Of a stretch of 64,000 bases of DNA, positions 2,236-63,011 are shown in pieces. The notes beneath the pieces are model-generated. The model saw nothing but the letters and a program-made list of their open reading frames with translations, searched no databases and was not told the origin of the DNA. This DNA is from an uncultured Alphaproteobacteria bacterium (GTDB lineage Bacteria; Pseudomonadota; Alphaproteobacteria; RF32; CAG-239). A program made the position numbers and the translations under genes. Where the stretch lies: positions 16,768 through 80,767 of the forward strand of contig CALXTL010000005.1 in the NCBI GenBank assembly GCA_944391445.1, in the 5' to 3' direction. Position 1 is the stretch's first letter. Each line of letters begins with the position of its first letter.

Positions 2236-3024
2236 ATGACTAAACCCAAGTTAACTTATGAGCAAAACATCAGCCTCAAAGGCTTGTCGTTGGAAGAAAA
2301 GTTGAATCTTCTGCACGAGTGGAAGAAAAACGAGGAAATTGACCAGCCCGCATTTGAACATTTTTCCAATCTCTGGATCAAGAAAGAGAGTAAAAAAATC
2401 ATCAATGCCAATGCGCCGCTCCGTCGCCGCGTTAATGAAACGCTGGAAAGAAGCAATTTCTGCTGCCGCACCGTCCGGGAAGGACAAATGCAGGTTTTTA
2501 TTGATAAACTGCGCGGCAAGATCAACGACTACATTGCCAACCGTTCGAATGAAGCCCAACTGACGGACAAAGAACGCAACCTTTTTTACAAATACGTTAA
2601 AGAAAACGTTCACAGTTACCGTCTGCTTGTAAACCAGATGCTGATCCTTGGCCTGCGCTATCCTGACAAAGAACTCAACAGCTTTTGCAGCAATTTTGTT
2701 CAGGAAAACAAAAAAGGCCCGTATTTTACGGATTATCATTTCTGGGGCACACTGTGGGAAGACCCCGATTTTGTGCCATTGGACGCCATCCGTTTGATGC
2801 TGGTCAAAAAAGAAGACGGCCGCCACATCGACAACTTGTTTGCCCCAAGTTTCATTCAGAGCATCATTCCCCTGATTGAAGCTCAGCGCAACAAAGAAGT
2901 GGAGCGTCTCAAATTTGCCCAGATGCTGGAAGGCAAAGAGCGCGAAATGCAAGTCAAGCGCAAGATGGAACGCTTAAATGCGTTCAACATCCTGCTCAAA
3001 GCCGCTGAAGAGTATTGCTCATAA
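2236..3024 (+). CDS. Hypothetical protein, K/E-rich, no recognisable domain
   Basis: Long ORF with coding-like composition. The ORF-track first codon at 2155 is TTG; the first ATG is at 2236 (MTKPKLTYEQ...). Sits directly upstream of the RelA/SpoT-like ORF. Confidence 0.5.
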   Translation: MTKPKLTYEQNISLKGLSLEEKLNLLHEWKKNEEIDQPAFEHFSNLWIKKESKKIINANAPLRRRVNETLERSNFCCRTVREGQMQVFIDKLRGKINDYIANRSNEAQLTDKERNLFYKYVKENVHSYRLLVNQMLILGLRYPDKELNSFCSNFVQENKKGPYFTDYHFWGTLWEDPDFVPLDAIRLMLVKKEDGRHIDNLFAPSFIQSIIPLIEAQRNKEVERLKFAQMLEGKEREMQVKRKMERLNAFNILLKAAEEYCS

Positions 3025-3162
3025 AATCTCGGCTAAAGTCTCCAAAACCTCTCTGGTTTTGGAGACTTTTTTTGTTTTTTTCATAAAAAACTATTGATAA
3101 ACCGGTGCTTTTATGGCATATTTACAAAATGGACAAAAAACGACAAATAGGAATATCAAAAA

Positions 3163-4572
3163 ATGAATGAGAATGACTTTCAGAATATTGAAGCCAAAGA
3201 TCTTTACAATATGACATTTGAAGAAATCGATGAGATCCAAAATGCCTTAAACGCGCACAATCTTGAAACAATCGAAAAAGCTTTCCGTCAGCACCGCATC
3301 AACTATTCCGAAAGAGACTACCTGCTGGAATTTTTCCATGACGGGATGGGCGTTGAACGCGAAGTCTACCGCACCTTATACGAAACTTTTGGCCAACCCG
3401 AAAGGACCTGTTCCTATGATCCTGTCACCGGCAAAGTCGACACCGACAAAAACGGCCAAAAAATCAACTATGGCCTGAAAGTCGTTACCCCTTTCGTCAA
3501 TACGCGCTTGGAATATCGCGATAAAAACATCAACCAGATTTTTGTCATTATGCCGAAGATGAAAAAAGCCAGCCGCGCGATTGAAAAAATTGAGTCGGAA
3601 TATGGCATTGAATATCAACAGAAATACAATCAAATGCTAAACCGCCTTTTTCGCGATGAAGATCGCGACAGCTTTTGCGAGGCAATACAAGATATTCCTC
3701 AAACCACCAACAGTCTGCACGATATTTTACGGCTGACCATCACCTGCAAATATCTGACAGATGTCCAACGCATCAAACGTAAACTGGTCGAAAACAAATC
3801 TGCATCTTTCTATATTGAGCCGAACGAAATCCGCGATCGCTTCAACAAACCTCTGTCTCAAAACGAGAAAAAATATTATGACATCAAATTAATCATTCAC
3901 CACAAAATGCCCAACGGCAAAATTCTCGATGTTGAAGCTCAGTTAAAAATCAATACGCTTTATCAGGGAGATATTCTGACGCACGGAATTTATGAAGACA
4001 TCCGGGAAACCGAAGCACTTTTGGCCAAAAAAAGAGCGCAGATGGATGAATCTGAAATCCGCCAAAACGAAGCAAAAATCAAGATTCTGAACAATCGTAT
4101 TGCACAGATAAACAAAGCCTTTATTCATCAATATAATATGATTGTTCTTGACAAAGCCTACCGGATTGAAAATGACGGCTACCGTCCGCTGCGTGTCGAG
4201 CCGGAAAATGCCGACGGCACCTATAATCGCTGCCGCTCGTTTATTAATGCCGAATATATGCCGGAGTCCTATCAGCCGTTCAACGGCAAAGAAGACTTTT
4301 CGGCTGCCTCTGATCTCAACAAACTCTGCTATTTGCGGCTGATTGGCAAACTGCCGGCTGACTTTGATATGTTTGCCGACACGGCATCCAAACATATTAA
4401 TTACAAATTTTCTCGTTTGAGTTCTGCCGAAATTGAACGCTTCAATGGCATTAATGAAATTGCTATACGTTATGAAAAAGTTGTCCAAAGAAAGATCAAT
4501 GACCGCGCCAAAAGCGACCACCCGGTTGCTTACGCCGGCCTTGCCAACGCAAAATCAAACCGCAGCCTCTGA
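3163..4572 (+). CDS. Hypothetical protein with a putative RelA/SpoT-type (small alarmone synthetase-like) nucleotidyltransferase domain
   Basis: 469-aa ORF with an AGGA ribosome-binding site upstream. Three stretches resemble synthetase-domain motifs: MPKMKKASRAIEKI (cf. GRVKxxxSIxxK), LHDILRLTIT (cf. DhhGhRhh) and PNGKILDVEAQLKINTL...THGIYEDIRE (cf. P.G..hEVQIRT..MH...AAHW.YKE). Followed by a bidirectional terminator. Confidence 0.55.
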   Translation: MNENDFQNIEAKDLYNMTFEEIDEIQNALNAHNLETIEKAFRQHRINYSERDYLLEFFHDGMGVEREVYRTLYETFGQPERTCSYDPVTGKVDTDKNGQKINYGLKVVTPFVNTRLEYRDKNINQIFVIMPKMKKASRAIEKIESEYGIEYQQKYNQMLNRLFRDEDRDSFCEAIQDIPQTTNSLHDILRLTITCKYLTDVQRIKRKLVENKSASFYIEPNEIRDRFNKPLSQNEKKYYDIKLIIHHKMPNGKILDVEAQLKINTLYQGDILTHGIYEDIRETEALLAKKRAQMDESEIRQNEAKIKILNNRIAQINKAFIHQYNMIVLDKAYRIENDGYRPLRVEPENADGTYNRCRSFINAEYMPESYQPFNGKEDFSAASDLNKLCYLRLIGKLPADFDMFADTASKHINYKFSRLSSAEIERFNGINEIAIRYEKVVQRKINDRAKSDHPVAYAGLANAKSNRSL

Positions 4573-4573
4573 A

Positions 4574-4609
4574 CAAAAAATCCGCCTTCTCTGTAAAGGC
4601 GGATTTTTT
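4574..4609. terminator. Bidirectional rho-independent terminator between the hypothetical gene and atpC
   Basis: Hairpin atccgcc...ggcggat with a 6-nt A-run upstream and a 5-nt T-run downstream. Confidence 0.6.
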
Positions 4610-5128: not shown

Positions 5129-6715
<1,587 letters not shown>

Positions 6716-60872: not shown

Positions 60873-63011
60873 TCAGCCGGCACGTGAGACATAAGAAACG
60901 ACTTTTGATCCCCGCAATGCCGAAATAATATCGGTCAGATGCTTCAAATCTTTGACTTCAATATCAACCAACAGTTCAAAATAACTGACGGTGCGATTAA
61001 CGATATTCAAATTGCAGATATTTCCGTTATTGCGCGCGATCAAATTAGATAAATCTCCTAAAGACCCCGGCTCGTTGGCAAGCATCAATTTCAAGCGGCC
61101 TATATGCGGCGTATCATCAACGGCATCACCCCAGGAAATATCCAGCCAGCGTTCCGGTTCATCGGCAAACTTTTCCAAAAGTTTACAATCAATCGTATGA
61201 ATGGCCACCCCTTTCCCTGTTGTCACAATGCCGACAATCCGATCTCCCGGCAACGGATGACAACACCCGGCATAATGCACCGCCATACCAGGAATCAATC
61301 CCTTGATTTTAAGCGGCTCTGCCTTGGATTTATCCTTGCGTGGCGTTTTGCTGAATGTCAGCGACTGGACAACCTTTCCAAGTTTGGACTGTTTATAAGC
61401 CGGATAAACGGCCTTCATCACATCCCAGGCTGTCACCAACCCTTCGCCGACTTTAGCATAAATATCATCTATTGATTCGGCTTCAAAATTGGGTAAAACA
61501 TTAACCAGTCCCTTTTCGCTGAACTCCAGATTTTCATTTTTGAAAGTTCTTTCCAACAGCTGCTGCCCCAACGTAATAAACTGATCGCGTTTATGCGCGC
61601 GCACATAGCGGCGAATAGCGGCTTTAGCTTTTCCCGTCACCACGAACCGATCCCATTCGGTTGAAGGATGCTGAGCTTTTGATGTCAGAATTTCCACTTG
61701 ATCGCCGTTCTGCAAAACGGTGCGCAGTGGCCGGATTTCGCCGTTGATTTTTGCACCGACACAGGTATCGCCGACAGAAGAATGCACCGCATAAGCAAAA
61801 TCAACCGGCGTAGAATTAACCGGCAACCCGATCAGATCGCCTTTCGGCGTAAAACAAAACACCTGATCATTATACATCTCAAGCTTGGTATTTTCCAAGA
61901 ACTCTTCCGGGTTGGATGCCTGTTCCAAAATCTCAAGCAGCTCTCTGATCCAACGGAAGTTTTTGCCGACAACTTTTTCACCTTGTTTATAAGCCCAGTG
62001 CGCGGCCACGCCTTTTTCATTGACCTCGTGCATTTCATGCGTACGGATCTGAATTTCAATACGCGTATTTTCCGGCCCGATAACACCGGTGTGAATGGAT
62101 TTATAACCATTTGGTTTCGGCGTGGAAATATAGTCCTTAAAACGGCGGGGCACCATATGATACTTGCTGTGCACCACCCCCAAAGCCTGATAACAAGAAG
62201 CCACGTCGTCAACAATAATTCTGAACGCCATAATATCTGAAAGCTGCTCAAAAGAAGCATTTTTCTGCTGCATTTTACGCCAGATGGAATACGGTGATTT
62301 TTCCCTGCCTGAAACACTGGCCTTAATGCCGTTTTCTTTCATGTCTTTTTCCAACTGGGCAATAATTTTCGGCACCAAATCGCTGTCTTGCTCGCGCAAA
62401 AAGTTCAATCGTGCCTGAATAGACTCATAAGCCTCTTTATGCAATTCGGCAAAAGCAATACCCTCCAGCTCGGTTTTAACCTCCTGCATACCAATACGTT
62501 CAGCCAAAGGCGCATAAATATCCAAAGTCTCCCGGGCAATTCTGGCTCTTTTTTCTGGCGGGCAAAAATGCAGCGTACGCATATTATGCAGTCGATCGGC
62601 AAGTTTAATCAGCAGCACGCGAATATCTTCCGACATAGCCAGCAACAATTTACGGAAGTTTTCCGCTTGTTTGTTATTGGAAGATTTTTGCTCAATCATT
62701 GCCAGCTTGGTCAGTCCGTCGACAATCTGTGCCACCTGGTCGCCAAACAATTTCCTGATTTCATCAATGGTTGTATCGGTATCTTCCACCGTATCATGCA
62801 GCAAACCGGCAATAATTGACGTGGAATCAAGCTTAAACTTGGTCAGAATGCCGGCAACTTCCACCGGATGCGAATAATACGGATCACCGGACGTACGCAG
62901 CTGGGCGCCGTGCTTTTTCATGGCAAACACATAAGCACGGTTCAAAGCGTCTTCATCAGCGTCCGGATCATAGGACTTGACCAAATCAACCAATTCATAT
63001 TGTCTTAGCAT
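60873..63011 (-). CDS. spoT: Bifunctional (p)ppGpp synthetase/hydrolase, long RSH (SpoT/Rel)
   Basis: N-terminal HD hydrolase (HPVEVAGIL...HDTVEDT), synthetase domain (GREKSPYSIWRKMQ...AFRIIV...GYKSIHTGVIGP...IEIQIRTHEMHEVNEKGVAAHWAYKQGE) and C-terminal TGS/ACT regions; 712 aa. Confidence 0.95.
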   Translation of the reverse strand: MLRQYELVDLVKSYDPDADEDALNRAYVFAMKKHGAQLRTSGDPYYSHPVEVAGILTKFKLDSTSIIAGLLHDTVEDTDTTIDEIRKLFGDQVAQIVDGLTKLAMIEQKSSNNKQAENFRKLLLAMSEDIRVLLIKLADRLHNMRTLHFCPPEKRARIARETLDIYAPLAERIGMQEVKTELEGIAFAELHKEAYESIQARLNFLREQDSDLVPKIIAQLEKDMKENGIKASVSGREKSPYSIWRKMQQKNASFEQLSDIMAFRIIVDDVASCYQALGVVHSKYHMVPRRFKDYISTPKPNGYKSIHTGVIGPENTRIEIQIRTHEMHEVNEKGVAAHWAYKQGEKVVGKNFRWIRELLEILEQASNPEEFLENTKLEMYNDQVFCFTPKGDLIGLPVNSTPVDFAYAVHSSVGDTCVGAKINGEIRPLRTVLQNGDQVEILTSKAQHPSTEWDRFVVTGKAKAAIRRYVRAHKRDQFITLGQQLLERTFKNENLEFSEKGLVNVLPNFEAESIDDIYAKVGEGLVTAWDVMKAVYPAYKQSKLGKVVQSLTFSKTPRKDKSKAEPLKIKGLIPGMAVHYAGCCHPLPGDRIVGIVTTGKGVAIHTIDCKLLEKFADEPERWLDISWGDAVDDTPHIGRLKLMLANEPGSLGDLSNLIARNNGNICNLNIVNRTVSYFELLVDIEVKDLKHLTDIISALRGSKVVSYVSRAG

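Follow-up and report, generated by a model that had tools for sequence, protein, structure and literature searches.

The question raised by the locus described here is whether a protein with only approximate motifs of an alarmone synthetase is such an enzyme and, if so, whether the gene in front of it encodes its antitoxin. The locus lies in a 64,000-nucleotide stretch of DNA from an uncultured Alphaproteobacteria bacterium (contig CALXTL010000005.1), which is referred to as a whole as the window. The gene for the 469-residue protein occupies 3163..4572 on the plus strand and starts with ATG; upstream and co-oriented lies a gene for an all-helical 262-residue product (2236..3024, plus strand), whose open reading frame (ORF) starts with TTG at 2155 when delimited mechanically and is read here from the ATG. 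A reading made from the sequence alone had proposed that the larger protein belongs to the RelA/SpoT homologue (RSH) superfamily and that the two genes may form a toxin–antitoxin pair. Both ORFs and all motif strings quoted in that reading are present in the window as described. The same holds for the flanks, namely a MacAB-type efflux operon on the minus strand (263–2169), divergent from the gene pair, and an atp operon on the minus strand (from 4617, in the order atpC, atpD, atpG, atpA), convergent with the enzyme gene, and for a genuine spoT gene elsewhere in the window (60873–63011). The description of the upstream protein as rich in lysine and glutamate holds to a modest degree (K 9.9%, E 10.3%).

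Within the RSH superfamily, the 469-residue protein of this window is the founding member of a very divergent family that has gone without annotation. Judged from its sequence and predicted structure, it is probably, if by a modest measure, an active ATP-dependent 3'-pyrophosphokinase of the Tas1/Apk-like RSH branch, encoded by a stand-alone chromosomal gene and regulated by its own additional domains. What is new here is an unannotated, architecturally distinct RSH family; the kind of enzyme itself is already known.

An Invariant Core in an Unannotated Family

A search of 5.8 billion proteins retrieved 67 clusters of homologues (37–100% identity), all of them unnamed or annotated as hypothetical and devoid of precomputed Pfam domains. 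Neither the enzyme nor the upstream protein has a significant match in Pfam, NCBIfam, PADLOC or PHROG. The motif strings of the 469-residue protein are MPKMKKASRAIEKI at residues 130–143, DILRLTI at 187–193, YYDIKLIIHH at 238–247, PNGKILDVEAQLK at 250–262 and HGIYE at 274–278. The sequence-only reading would have fallen had these stretches varied among homologues; in an alignment of 50 homologues (33–88% identity) they are instead the most conserved columns of the family, and the invariant columns include K134, R138, K142, D187, R190, Y238, D240, E258, Q260, K262, H274, and Y277. Sixteen core positions, that is these twelve together with F227, K242, E278, and R281, are the same in 42 of the 43 enzyme loci, the exception being L043, with Y238F; most of them are also retained in still more distant relatives. 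Among 146 sequences, K134, R138, and K142 are invariant, D187 is kept in 138 and E258 in 145, and Y238 is kept in 133 and replaced by Phe in seven more. The flagged motifs are beyond chance and constitute the invariant core of the 67-cluster family.

Single-protein matches to SidC_lipid-bd, MrpR_N_CB and similar families (E about 0.05) were dismissed as noise, as they are not common to the homologues. Many database matches covered only the N-terminal region of residues 10–180, which had led to the suspicion that this part is a module re-used in fusion with other toxin domains. A re-scan found the core in all those proteins, more diverged or interrupted by insertions; it revealed no other Pfam domains, and the short matches were contig fragments.

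Relationship to RSH Synthetases

Searches with the single protein against Pfam, NCBIfam, and sequences of the PDB returned nothing significant. The family profile has its best PDB sequence matches in Bacillus subtilis YjbM/SAS1, where a weak alignment (E 0.07) is in register and places D187 on the Mg2+-binding Asp of DIAGLRI and E258 and Q260 on EIQIRT. An AlphaFold2 model computed from the family alignment has a predicted local distance difference test score (pLDDT) of 91.2 and a predicted template modeling score (pTM) of 0.87. When this model was compared with the PDB by Foldseek, the only significant matches were Staphylococcus aureus RelP/SAS2 (E 7e-4, probability 1.00) and then the N-terminal domain of Mycobacterium tuberculosis Rel, all remaining matches having E > 0.5. 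Among the predicted viral structures of BFVD, the best matches are RelA/SpoT-type domains within polyvalent proteins of more than 1000 residues from uncultured tailed phages, with a root-mean-square deviation (rmsd) of 3.6 Å over about 190 columns (193) and a probability of 1.0.

The chain of homology to characterized enzymes runs through intermediates. When 1.84 billion representatives were searched exhaustively with HMMER, 102 matches were obtained, the weakest of which cover only profile positions ~165–325; of ten that were scanned, seven contain Pfam RelA_SpoT, two of them above the curated cutoff. Among 50 members of the family itself, the commonest Pfam match is PF04607 (17 of 50, all below threshold, best E 4e-4), any other family being matched by at most four members. 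The outside relatives, termed here the bridging group, share the motif series KGxERAxEK...DVVRxT...DRF...GYRDIK...ElQ...HxxYExxR and are aligned to the enzyme family by hhalign with a probability of 99.3% (E 3e-20, 192 columns). The best solved-structure match of the bridging group is in turn Tas1/Apk1 (6OX6, E 1.6e-17), followed by YwaC (3.6e-10) and by Rel, RelA, RelP, and YjbM (1e-6 to 2e-4); one bridging protein also weakly matches GrpB. As an internal control, the bridging profile was run against the six-frame translation of the window, where it finds both the enzyme (3e-20) and SpoT (7e-14).

These comparisons place the enzyme core (about residues 110–295) in the predicted SYNTH fold of the RSH synthetases, and within it in a putative Tas1/Apk1-like, phage-polyvalent-protein-like branch rather than among the housekeeping (p)ppGpp synthetases. 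The structural match was obtained with a predicted model, and the significant profile homology to bona fide RSH synthetases passes through intermediates. Profile and fold searches point to the RSH fold and to no other, as the sequence-only reading had anticipated, and its suggestion of a highly divergent alarmone-synthetase-like protein is supported by the links to the bridging group and Tas1, which put the family nearest, among characterized enzymes, to the toxin-type (Tas1/Apk, toxSAS-related) ones.

The bridging group looks like modules of phages or conjugative elements. One member, P0183 (L048 2094–5579), is encoded downstream of ddrB-ParB and InPase domain genes and amid many small ORFs. 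Genes of these two kinds are hallmarks of polyvalent-protein modules. In addition, P0195 starts with a EEDHPRDALGRW-type motif, P0169 and P0194 carry ParB-like "VVDGN(S/G)TY" segments, and P0173 consists of a RelA_SpoT-like core fused to a TPR-S sensor domain.

Putative Active-Site Residues and Specificity Signatures

Roles can be proposed for the conserved residues by alignment to relatives, with residue functions drawn from the structures of FaRel2 and RelP (PMC11782079); all positions in the following are on the plus strand. The syn1-like element (3550..3591) consists of a strand and a basic helix, PKMK134-KAS-R138-AIE-K142, which may bind the ATP triphosphate by analogy with K66/S70/K74 of FaRel2. 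It is aligned to KGxERAxEK of the bridging group and to IKSRERAMQK of Tas1, and, like Tas1, it lacks the Arg that leads R-x-K. The syn2-like strand D187-I-L-R190-L-T192-I (3721..3741) holds the putative Mg2+-binding Asp, aligned to the catalytic Asp of YjbM (DIAGLRI) and of SpoT (SDIMAFRI), and the R-x-T signature of adenosine 3'-pyrophosphokinases, in which R190 is invariant and T192 is conserved in at least 90% of sequences; the Tas1 counterpart reads DLARNT. The syn3-like G-loop K236-K-Y238-Y-D240-I-K242...H246 (3868..3900) supplies a Tyr that would stack on the acceptor base, its KYYDIK being aligned with GYRDIK of the bridging group, and D-x-K here replaces the S-x-H of guanosine-type and the G-x-N of adenosine-type enzymes. 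The syn4-like strand D-V-E258-A-Q260-L-K262-I (3928..3951), which resembles EIQIRT and is aligned to VEIQIRT of both YjbM and SpoT, contains the putative catalytic Glu and adenine-contacting Gln. Finally, the syn5-like helix T-H274-G-I-Y277-E278-D-I-R281 (3979..4005) is common to Tas1 (GHKYYEDWR) and the bridging group (HxxYExxR). By conservation and alignment, the residues expected of a catalytic and donor site, from the syn1 helix and the syn2 Asp to the syn3 Tyr and the syn4 E-x-Q, are all present.

Adenosine and guanosine enzymes have been distinguished by their signatures in syn2 (R-[YN]-T, RYT, vs. AVR), syn3 (GxN vs. SxH) and syn4 (YH vs. IR), the adenosine-type syn4 being Y-H in Apk2 and V-N in Tas1 (PMC12226406). 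The window protein carries an adenosine-type syn2 (D187-I-L-R190-L-T192). Its D240-I-K242 in syn3 and L-K262 in syn4 fit neither consensus, in place of the G-x-N and Y-H or V-N of adenosine enzymes, and the L-K of syn4 is basic, like that of guanosine enzymes. Conserved basic residues are found around the G-loop (R224, K236, K242, and K262), and the isoelectric point (pI) ranges from 5.4 to 9.0 within the family, which is not uniformly basic. A "large positive patch", with which these residues would agree, has been described in alarmone synthetases, and none in the tRNA-targeting FaRel2 (PMC11782079). Basic residues at the G-loop and the range of pI may lean toward a nucleotide rather than a tRNA as the acceptor.

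A catalytically dead or re-purposed nucleotidyltransferase fold, serving as a nucleotide sensor, as a scaffold or in another reaction, would fit the sub-threshold score for Pfam RelA_SpoT, the atypical syn1, syn3, and syn5 spacing and the weak GrpB match of one bridging protein. We regard it as highly improbable: the full set of Mg2+-, triphosphate- and base-contacting positions stays invariant while overall identity across the family falls to 27–40%, the same variant motifs occur in Tas1, which is a proven enzyme, and every fold or profile match of significance is to an RSH synthetase.

The Upstream Gene and the Evolution of the Locus

The pairing proposed by the sequence-only reading would correspond to a two-gene toxSAS module, in which the upstream 262-residue protein acts as an antitoxin or immunity protein and neutralizes the 469-residue toxin by binding. 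In its favor, the pair stands side by side in the same orientation in the window and in six to seven related species, and the upstream protein appears well folded and helical, with no other assigned function: it belongs to a domain-less family of 31 clusters, its AlphaFold2 model is confident and all-helical (pLDDT 85), and neither fold comparison (best E 0.3) nor Pfam or NCBIfam provided a match. Since the upstream family has no invariant histidine, its protein is not an HD-type alarmone hydrolase, and no similarity to Tis1/IapK, pZFD or HD hydrolases was detected.

The organization of the locus argues against such a module. A hairpin followed by a T-run, resembling an intrinsic terminator, lies at the end of the transcript of the upstream gene (3035..3079, plus strand; hairpin 3035–3069, 15-bp stem, dG -23.3, z -6.9), and behind it a promoter-like element precedes the enzyme gene (3094..3122, plus strand; TTGATA-17-CATATT with an upstream TG, i.e., an extended -10); both had been overlooked by the sequence-only reading. 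The hairpin with its T-run recurs 3' of the upstream gene in all eight loci that carry the pair, with different stem sequences and a preserved structure, and each of these hairpins is followed by a promoter-like element. A CTTGC[CA]-N17-TGnCAtAaT element is found 5' of the enzyme gene in genomic contexts A, C, and part of B (described below). With a terminator and a separate promoter between them, the two genes therefore form separate transcription units. At the other end, the enzyme gene and atpC converge on a common bidirectional terminator-like hairpin (4575..4609), which folds strongly on both strands (dG -17.9 kcal/mol on the plus and -22.7 kcal/mol on the minus strand, z about -6.3), as had been proposed.

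An A-rich leader motif (…AAAGTTAGACAAAA…), which reads CAAAATGGACAAAAAACGACAAA in the window (3128–3150), follows just 3' of the -10 box of the enzyme gene. It recurs at the equivalent position in L001, L003, L005, L007, L009, L031, L041, L010, L011, and L004, which represent several contexts, and could be either a regulatory site or a plain A-rich 5' untranslated region.

Co-inheritance is likewise limited. A profile of the upstream family was searched against all ORFs of the 43 loci in order to exclude divergent copies overlooked by tblastn. The upstream gene adjoins the enzyme gene in six of 37 species, with a contig-edge fragment in a seventh; in about 28 of the 37, the flanks that are visible do not contain it. 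In locus L030, where synteny is the same and flanking proteins are 91–100% identical to those of L001, the upstream gene has been lost while the enzyme retains every catalytic residue. The co-transcribed and co-inherited operon of a type II toxSAS system is not what is observed, and conservation of the neighborhood in relatives, which the sequence-only reading had named as a check, extends to a subset of them only.

A further small ORF of ~84–93 residues, conserved yet very fast-evolving and without a Pfam match, is located between macA and the ~255-residue homologue of the upstream gene in most syntenic relatives (L001 4800–5081, L003 4844–5107, L005 4848–5102, and also L030 and L041). It is kept in L030, where the ~255-residue gene is lost, and is missing from L007 and from the window (between 2169 and 2236).

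The pace of evolution would agree with a toxin and its antidote, as both genes and the small third ORF evolve much faster than their flanks, and rapid divergence is a known trait of immunity proteins that act by binding (PMC12226406). Between L003 and L005, flanking proteins are 85–97% identical, compared with 60% for the ~88-residue ORF, 58% for the ~255-residue protein and 50% for the enzyme; this gap reflects weaker constraint, because synonymous sites are near saturation throughout the pair. The enzyme is the fastest or among the fastest-evolving local genes in every context, with a ratio of non-synonymous to synonymous substitution rates (dN/dS) of 0.05–0.18 against 0.01–0.09 in most neighbors. 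It is under purifying selection, and pervasive positive selection as the cause of the divergence of the cassette is rejected by these values. In a second comparison, L001 against L030, four-fold degenerate sites differ by 52% for the enzyme gene and by 44% for the small ORF; the adjacent macA stands at 21% and most flanking genes at 0–12%. The rate of synonymous substitution (dS) is correspondingly 1.47 vs. 0.02–0.32 in the flanks and tapers through the adjacent macA (0.28) and fmt (0.32), a clear sign that the cassette was swapped for a divergent allele by recombination.

Against the conserved terminator in all eight pair-bearing loci, the promoter of the enzyme gene itself, the absence of the upstream gene from the visible flanks in most species and its deletion beside an intact enzyme, and with no PADLOC match and no Tis1/IapK, pZFD or HD similarity, a toxSAS module composed of these two genes is very unlikely. 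The upstream gene is a lineage-restricted, fast-evolving neighbor and not an obligate partner, and the locus illustrates that gene adjacency alone can mislead the calling of toxin–antitoxin systems.

Distribution and Genomic Contexts

In a scan of one genome per species, the enzyme gene was found in 37 species, all of them represented by metagenome-assembled genomes (MAGs) of uncultured Alphaproteobacteria from animal guts (human, roe deer, rabbit, and chicken), a setting that does not agree with the intracellular bacteria considered by the sequence-only reading. Clustering of all flanking ORFs, with annotations confirmed by Pfam, revealed at least four contexts, mostly of housekeeping genes. 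In context A, that of the window, macB-macB-macA on the minus strand are followed by the optional ~88-residue ORF, the ~255-residue gene and the enzyme gene, and then by either fmt-era-rnc-lepB-acpS-DUF2062-spoT or the atp operon. Context B comprises an AcrB-type pump, a membrane fusion protein (MFP) and a YbaK-type deacylase on the minus strand, then the enzyme gene and pyruvate:ferredoxin oxidoreductase. In context C, the enzyme gene precedes genes for a GalU-like NTP_transferase and a HemN-like radical SAM enzyme, and in context D it lies between one to four flagellin genes and a gene for a Sel1-repeat protein. No neighbor is common to all contexts when all flanking ORFs are clustered. A neighbor-joining tree of the enzyme largely follows context, with A, C, and D each monophyletic, which indicates that inheritance has been mainly vertical. 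The GC content of both genes, overall and at third codon positions (GC3), is similar to that of the flanks. Housekeeping flanks, a context-congruent tree and native GC3 are the opposite of the mobile and patchy distribution expected of a toxin–antitoxin system, and neither PADLOC, with divergent family members included, nor PHROG provided a match.

In most syntenic relatives (L001, L003, L013, L020, L022, L030, L031, and L041), spoT lies about 4–6 kb downstream of the enzyme gene, behind fmt-era-rnc-lepB-acpS-DUF2062. The window has been rearranged, so that the atp operon occupies this place and spoT is about 56 kb away; the synteny is probably coincidental. Two further protein clusters, both lineage-specific and without a Pfam match, recur directly beside the enzyme gene in some genomes and are possible context-specific partners: c23, a ~370–390-residue protein encoded upstream and co-oriented (L012 6698–7876, L016, and L034), and c30, a ~155–187-residue protein next to the RSH-like gene (L028/L029 5804–6367 and L014).

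Characterized enzymes of the Tas1/Apk/toxSAS kind are toxins exported by the type VI secretion system (T6SS), by MuF or by Sec, or parts of toxSAS modules, and every one of them is paired with immunity, a hydrolase or a route of export (PMC12691689, PMC11782079, PMC12226406, PMC10083569). The gene of the window family, by contrast, is monocistronic, chromosomal and lineage-wide. The linked immunity typical of Apk enzymes, either a Tis1/IapK binder or an Aph1/SAH hydrolase, was found neither in the window nor in the 43 loci. A search for HD, SAH, and Aph1-type hydrolases in the window and within about 8 kb in these loci returned only SpoT, so that the cell's own bifunctional SpoT is the only recognizable alarmone hydrolase nearby. 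Similarly, no determinant of delivery or export (PAAR/Rhs, MuF, LXG, XopAD, DUF4157 or a Sec signal) was recognized, and neither the enzyme nor the upstream protein has a hydrophobic segment fit for a signal peptide or membrane helix.

Enzymes that leave the cell might do without an immunity gene, and exported Apk1-like enzymes lacking one do exist (SaEAS and VpEAS; PMC12691689). The family could accordingly consist of exported alarmone synthetases or effectors that use a non-Sec route, e.g., the flagellar export apparatus, and act outside or in another cell, where no cytoplasmic immunity would be needed. The gene of deep relatives stands directly after one to four flagellin genes and directly before the Sel1-repeat gene, whose product begins with a signal-peptide-like sequence in L037, the N-terminal region of the protein is family-specific, and its evolution is conflict-like. 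Against this stand the missing Sec signal peptide and hydrophobic segment, the lack of any delivery domain (LXG, PAAR/Rhs, MuF, XopAD or DUF4157) by Pfam, and the neighborhood in the clade of the window, which has no adjoining flagellin, Sel1 or secretion genes and, in the 64-kb window, no Sel1 homologue. Furthermore, a folded, active enzyme awaiting export in the cytoplasm would still need to be neutralized. An exported effector is in our view distinctly unlikely.

The association with Sel1 is noted here in its own right. In deep-branching relatives (L004 1437–4303; L035–L039 and L042; L044 211–2822; L045/L046 5001–8217; L047 5001–7650), the Sel1-repeat gene begins 2–25 bp 3' of the RSH-like gene, and in one clade one to four co-oriented flagellin genes lie 5'. 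The Sel1 protein of L037, the sole one whose N-terminus was read, begins with the signal-peptide-like MRIFILLLATIFGVTESAYAQ. The arrangement may represent an ancestral operon that is absent from the clade of the window. Literature searches found no description of the enzyme family or of an RSH–Sel1 pairing.

Protein Architecture Outside the Core

Four features of the 469-residue protein have no counterpart in its relatives, and searches of the PDB by profile and by Foldseek detected no solved-structure relative for any of them: the N-terminal ~110 residues, an insertion of ~31 residues, a long helical hairpin after the core, and a C-terminal helical domain. The N-terminal region (residues 1–110; 3163..3492, plus strand) forms three helices followed by beta elements according to DSSP analysis of the model and contains no known domain. 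It is specific to the family, as the hhalign match to the bridging group begins at about residue 76–110 and the region is absent there and present in all distant family members. The insertion between syn1 and syn2 (residues 151–181; 3613..3705, plus strand), which appears as a gap in the alignment with the bridging group, is the least conserved segment, with the lowest per-segment identity in most compared pairs. The C-terminal helical region (residues 296–469; 4048..4569, plus strand) is a candidate regulatory or autoinhibitory domain. Here, a long helix paired with the preceding helix is followed by a conserved block, HQYNMxVxDKxxRxExDGYRPL...DGTYxxC, and Y324, M326, E336, T353, Y354, C357, Y365, F379, N386, and F427 are invariant. 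One protein of 305 residues, P0134, matches the C-terminal domain of the family twice in tandem (profile positions 327–460 and 359–464), which hints at a duplicated or free-standing form of the domain; it could also be a fragment.

A single polypeptide with a SYNTH core and a C-terminal domain, and with no separate antitoxin, is also the layout of CapRel, a fused toxin–antitoxin and phage sensor. By this analogy, the enzyme would be a pyrophosphokinase of the tRNA 3'-CCA end that is held off by its C-terminal domain and released by a phage protein, leading to abortive infection. Its affinities on the toxSAS side, its faster evolution than that of its neighbors with one allele replacement at a fixed locus, and the ordered helical region in front of the core, which occurs in FaRel2 as well and binds tRNA there (PMC11782079), are all compatible with such a role. 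The C-terminal domain, however, is among the best conserved parts of the protein and not hypervariable as expected of a phage sensor, and residues 296–469 show neither sequence nor fold similarity to CapRel structures with their variable pseudo-Zn-finger domain; the CapRel entries 7ztb and 9erv are reached by the bridging group only, at E about 0.06. No PADLOC model was matched, even when divergent members were included. The surroundings are of the housekeeping kind, without defense islands or prophages, inheritance is mostly vertical, a pI of 5.4–9.0 is not uniformly basic, and the basic residues near the G-loop would suggest a nucleotide acceptor. A CapRel-type switch is on balance unlikely.

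A Putative Self-Regulated 3'-Pyrophosphokinase

The reading favored here remains that of an active 3'-pyrophosphokinase controlled by its own domains. In the proposed mechanism, ATP-Mg2+ would be bound as the pyrophosphate donor: the K134/R138/K142 helix would hold the triphosphate, D187 together with E258 the Mg2+, and R190 and Q260 the adenine between them. The base of the acceptor would be stacked on Y238, and the beta,gamma-pyrophosphate transferred to the 3'-OH of the acceptor, most likely a purine nucleotide, to yield (p)ppApp and/or (p)ppGpp. Activity may be checked in cis by the N-terminal region, the 31-residue insertion and/or the C-terminal helical domain and released by some cue. 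Regulation in cis is proposed because there is no linked neutralizer and no export signal, and because the enzymes of the Tas1/Apk branch, which are among the fastest known, are lethal if free in the cytoplasm (PMC12691689).

Comparison with known systems brings out both the kinship and the distinctness of the family. It shares with Tas1/Apk1, a (p)ppApp synthetase and T6SS effector of Pseudomonas aeruginosa (6OX6), the RSH SYNTH fold, the K-x-x-x-R-x-x-x-K helix without a leading Arg, D-x-x-R-x-T, E-x-Q, and H-x-x-Y-E-x-x-R. Tas1, in contrast, forms the toxin portion at the C-terminus of a PAAR-type effector and is accompanied by its immunity gene, Tis1, while the window family has its own N- and C-terminal domains, a 31-residue insertion and D-x-K instead of G-x-N in syn3, and is encoded by a conserved chromosomal gene. 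Signal peptides or delivery domains are a trait of exported alarmone synthetases (PMC12691689) that the window family does not share. The closest structural matches are the polyvalent RelA/SpoT domains of phages and conjugative elements and the MuF-fused Apk2 (rmsd 3.6 Å over about 190 columns), and the bridging sequences P0174–P0195 share their motif series with the enzyme family. The polyvalent domains, however, are modules of mobile-element proteins of more than 1000 residues or small phage genes, and Apk2 is accompanied by the immunity genes IapK and Aph1 (PMC12226406), whereas the window family is chromosomal, flanked by housekeeping genes, without a PHROG match and equipped with extra domains.

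The small alarmone synthetases (SAS) RelP and RelQ (SAS2 and SAS1; 6EWZ, 6FGJ, 5DEC) have the same fold, are the top direct PDB matches by profile and Foldseek, and align with the window protein in the catalytic Asp, the Glu, the Gln, and the G-loop Tyr. They differ in size, with about 210–230 residues and a C-terminal tetramerization bundle, and in their guanosine-type motifs D-x-x-G-x-R, S-x-H, I-R, and H-x-x-x-Y-K. At 469 residues, with an adenosine-type syn2 and a unique syn3, and with a sequence E of only 0.07 and a template modeling (TM) score of 0.40, the window protein departs from the single ~200–250-residue domain with guanosine-type syn2, syn3, and syn5 that defines the housekeeping enzymes RelP, RelQ, and RelV. 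The toxSAS enzymes (FaRel, FaRel2, PhRel, PhRel2, and CapRel) resemble it in their divergent "toxSYNTH" core, in the N-terminal helical region of FaRel2 and in the single-chain layout of core and C-terminal domain in CapRel. The window family nevertheless lacks a bicistronic antitoxin, a detectable pZFD, PAD1 or Tis1-like domain, a PADLOC match and a mobile or patchy distribution, and its C-terminal domain is conserved rather than hypervariable.

Several points weigh against an active, self-regulated synthetase. Membership in the RSH superfamily rests on intermediates and a predicted structure, and no direct match of hidden Markov models was obtained between the family profile and Tas1. The window protein does not reach the gathering threshold of PF04607 (27 bits), having no match even at E<=10, and an hhalign comparison of the family with the SYNTH region of the window's SpoT is in register yet not significant (E 0.1); for these two reasons the family has been annotated as hypothetical. 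The TM-score to RelP is low when normalized to the target. Within the active site, syn1 is without its leading Arg, syn3 is like neither signature, and the spacing of syn5 is different. Motif swaps do not switch specificity between adenosine and guanosine (PMC12226406), and according to a study in mBio from 2025, Apk1-like enzymes make (p)ppApp, (p)ppGpp or both, some of them (p)ppGpp only (PMC12691689); for both reasons the acceptor is not to be called from sequence. All close relatives characterized so far are toxins dependent on immunity or export, and an unregulated enzyme of this kind should be lethal in the cytoplasm. Finally, conflict-like evolution, with a rate above that of the neighbors and one allele replacement, fits a role as a toxin or in defense better than a housekeeping one, although the pattern does not identify the role.

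A bolder proposal, which we consider unlikely, is that a whole clade of gut Alphaproteobacteria has domesticated a toxin-type pyrophosphokinase. The resulting alarmone synthetase would be fixed in the chromosome, work in the cytoplasm and regulate itself, its novel N- and C-terminal domains exerting in cis the control that falls to an immunity protein elsewhere. No earlier source of (p)ppApp, or of whatever new 3'-pyrophosphorylated product it makes, would be of this dedicated, housekeeping-style and non-toxin kind, and the product might be cleared by SpoT. The roles and prevalence of (p)ppApp synthetases have been described as "largely unknown" (PMC10083569). A conserved member of a toxin branch that occurs under purifying selection and without immunity gene or signal in at least 37 species would be either tamed in cis for endogenous signaling or a new fused, self-contained toxin or defense switch; in both cases the range of designs known for RSH enzymes would grow. 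Pfam, NCBIfam, PADLOC, and PHROGs all miss the family, which is called hypothetical everywhere; the profile from this analysis would permit its annotation.

Additional Features of the Flanking atp Operon

Two peculiarities were noted in the convergent atp operon of the window. The AtpD ORF (5129–6703, minus strand; 524 residues) has an unusual Lys/Ala-rich N-terminal extension of ~55 residues before the canonical start, and the 161-residue product of atpC carries a C-terminal tail.

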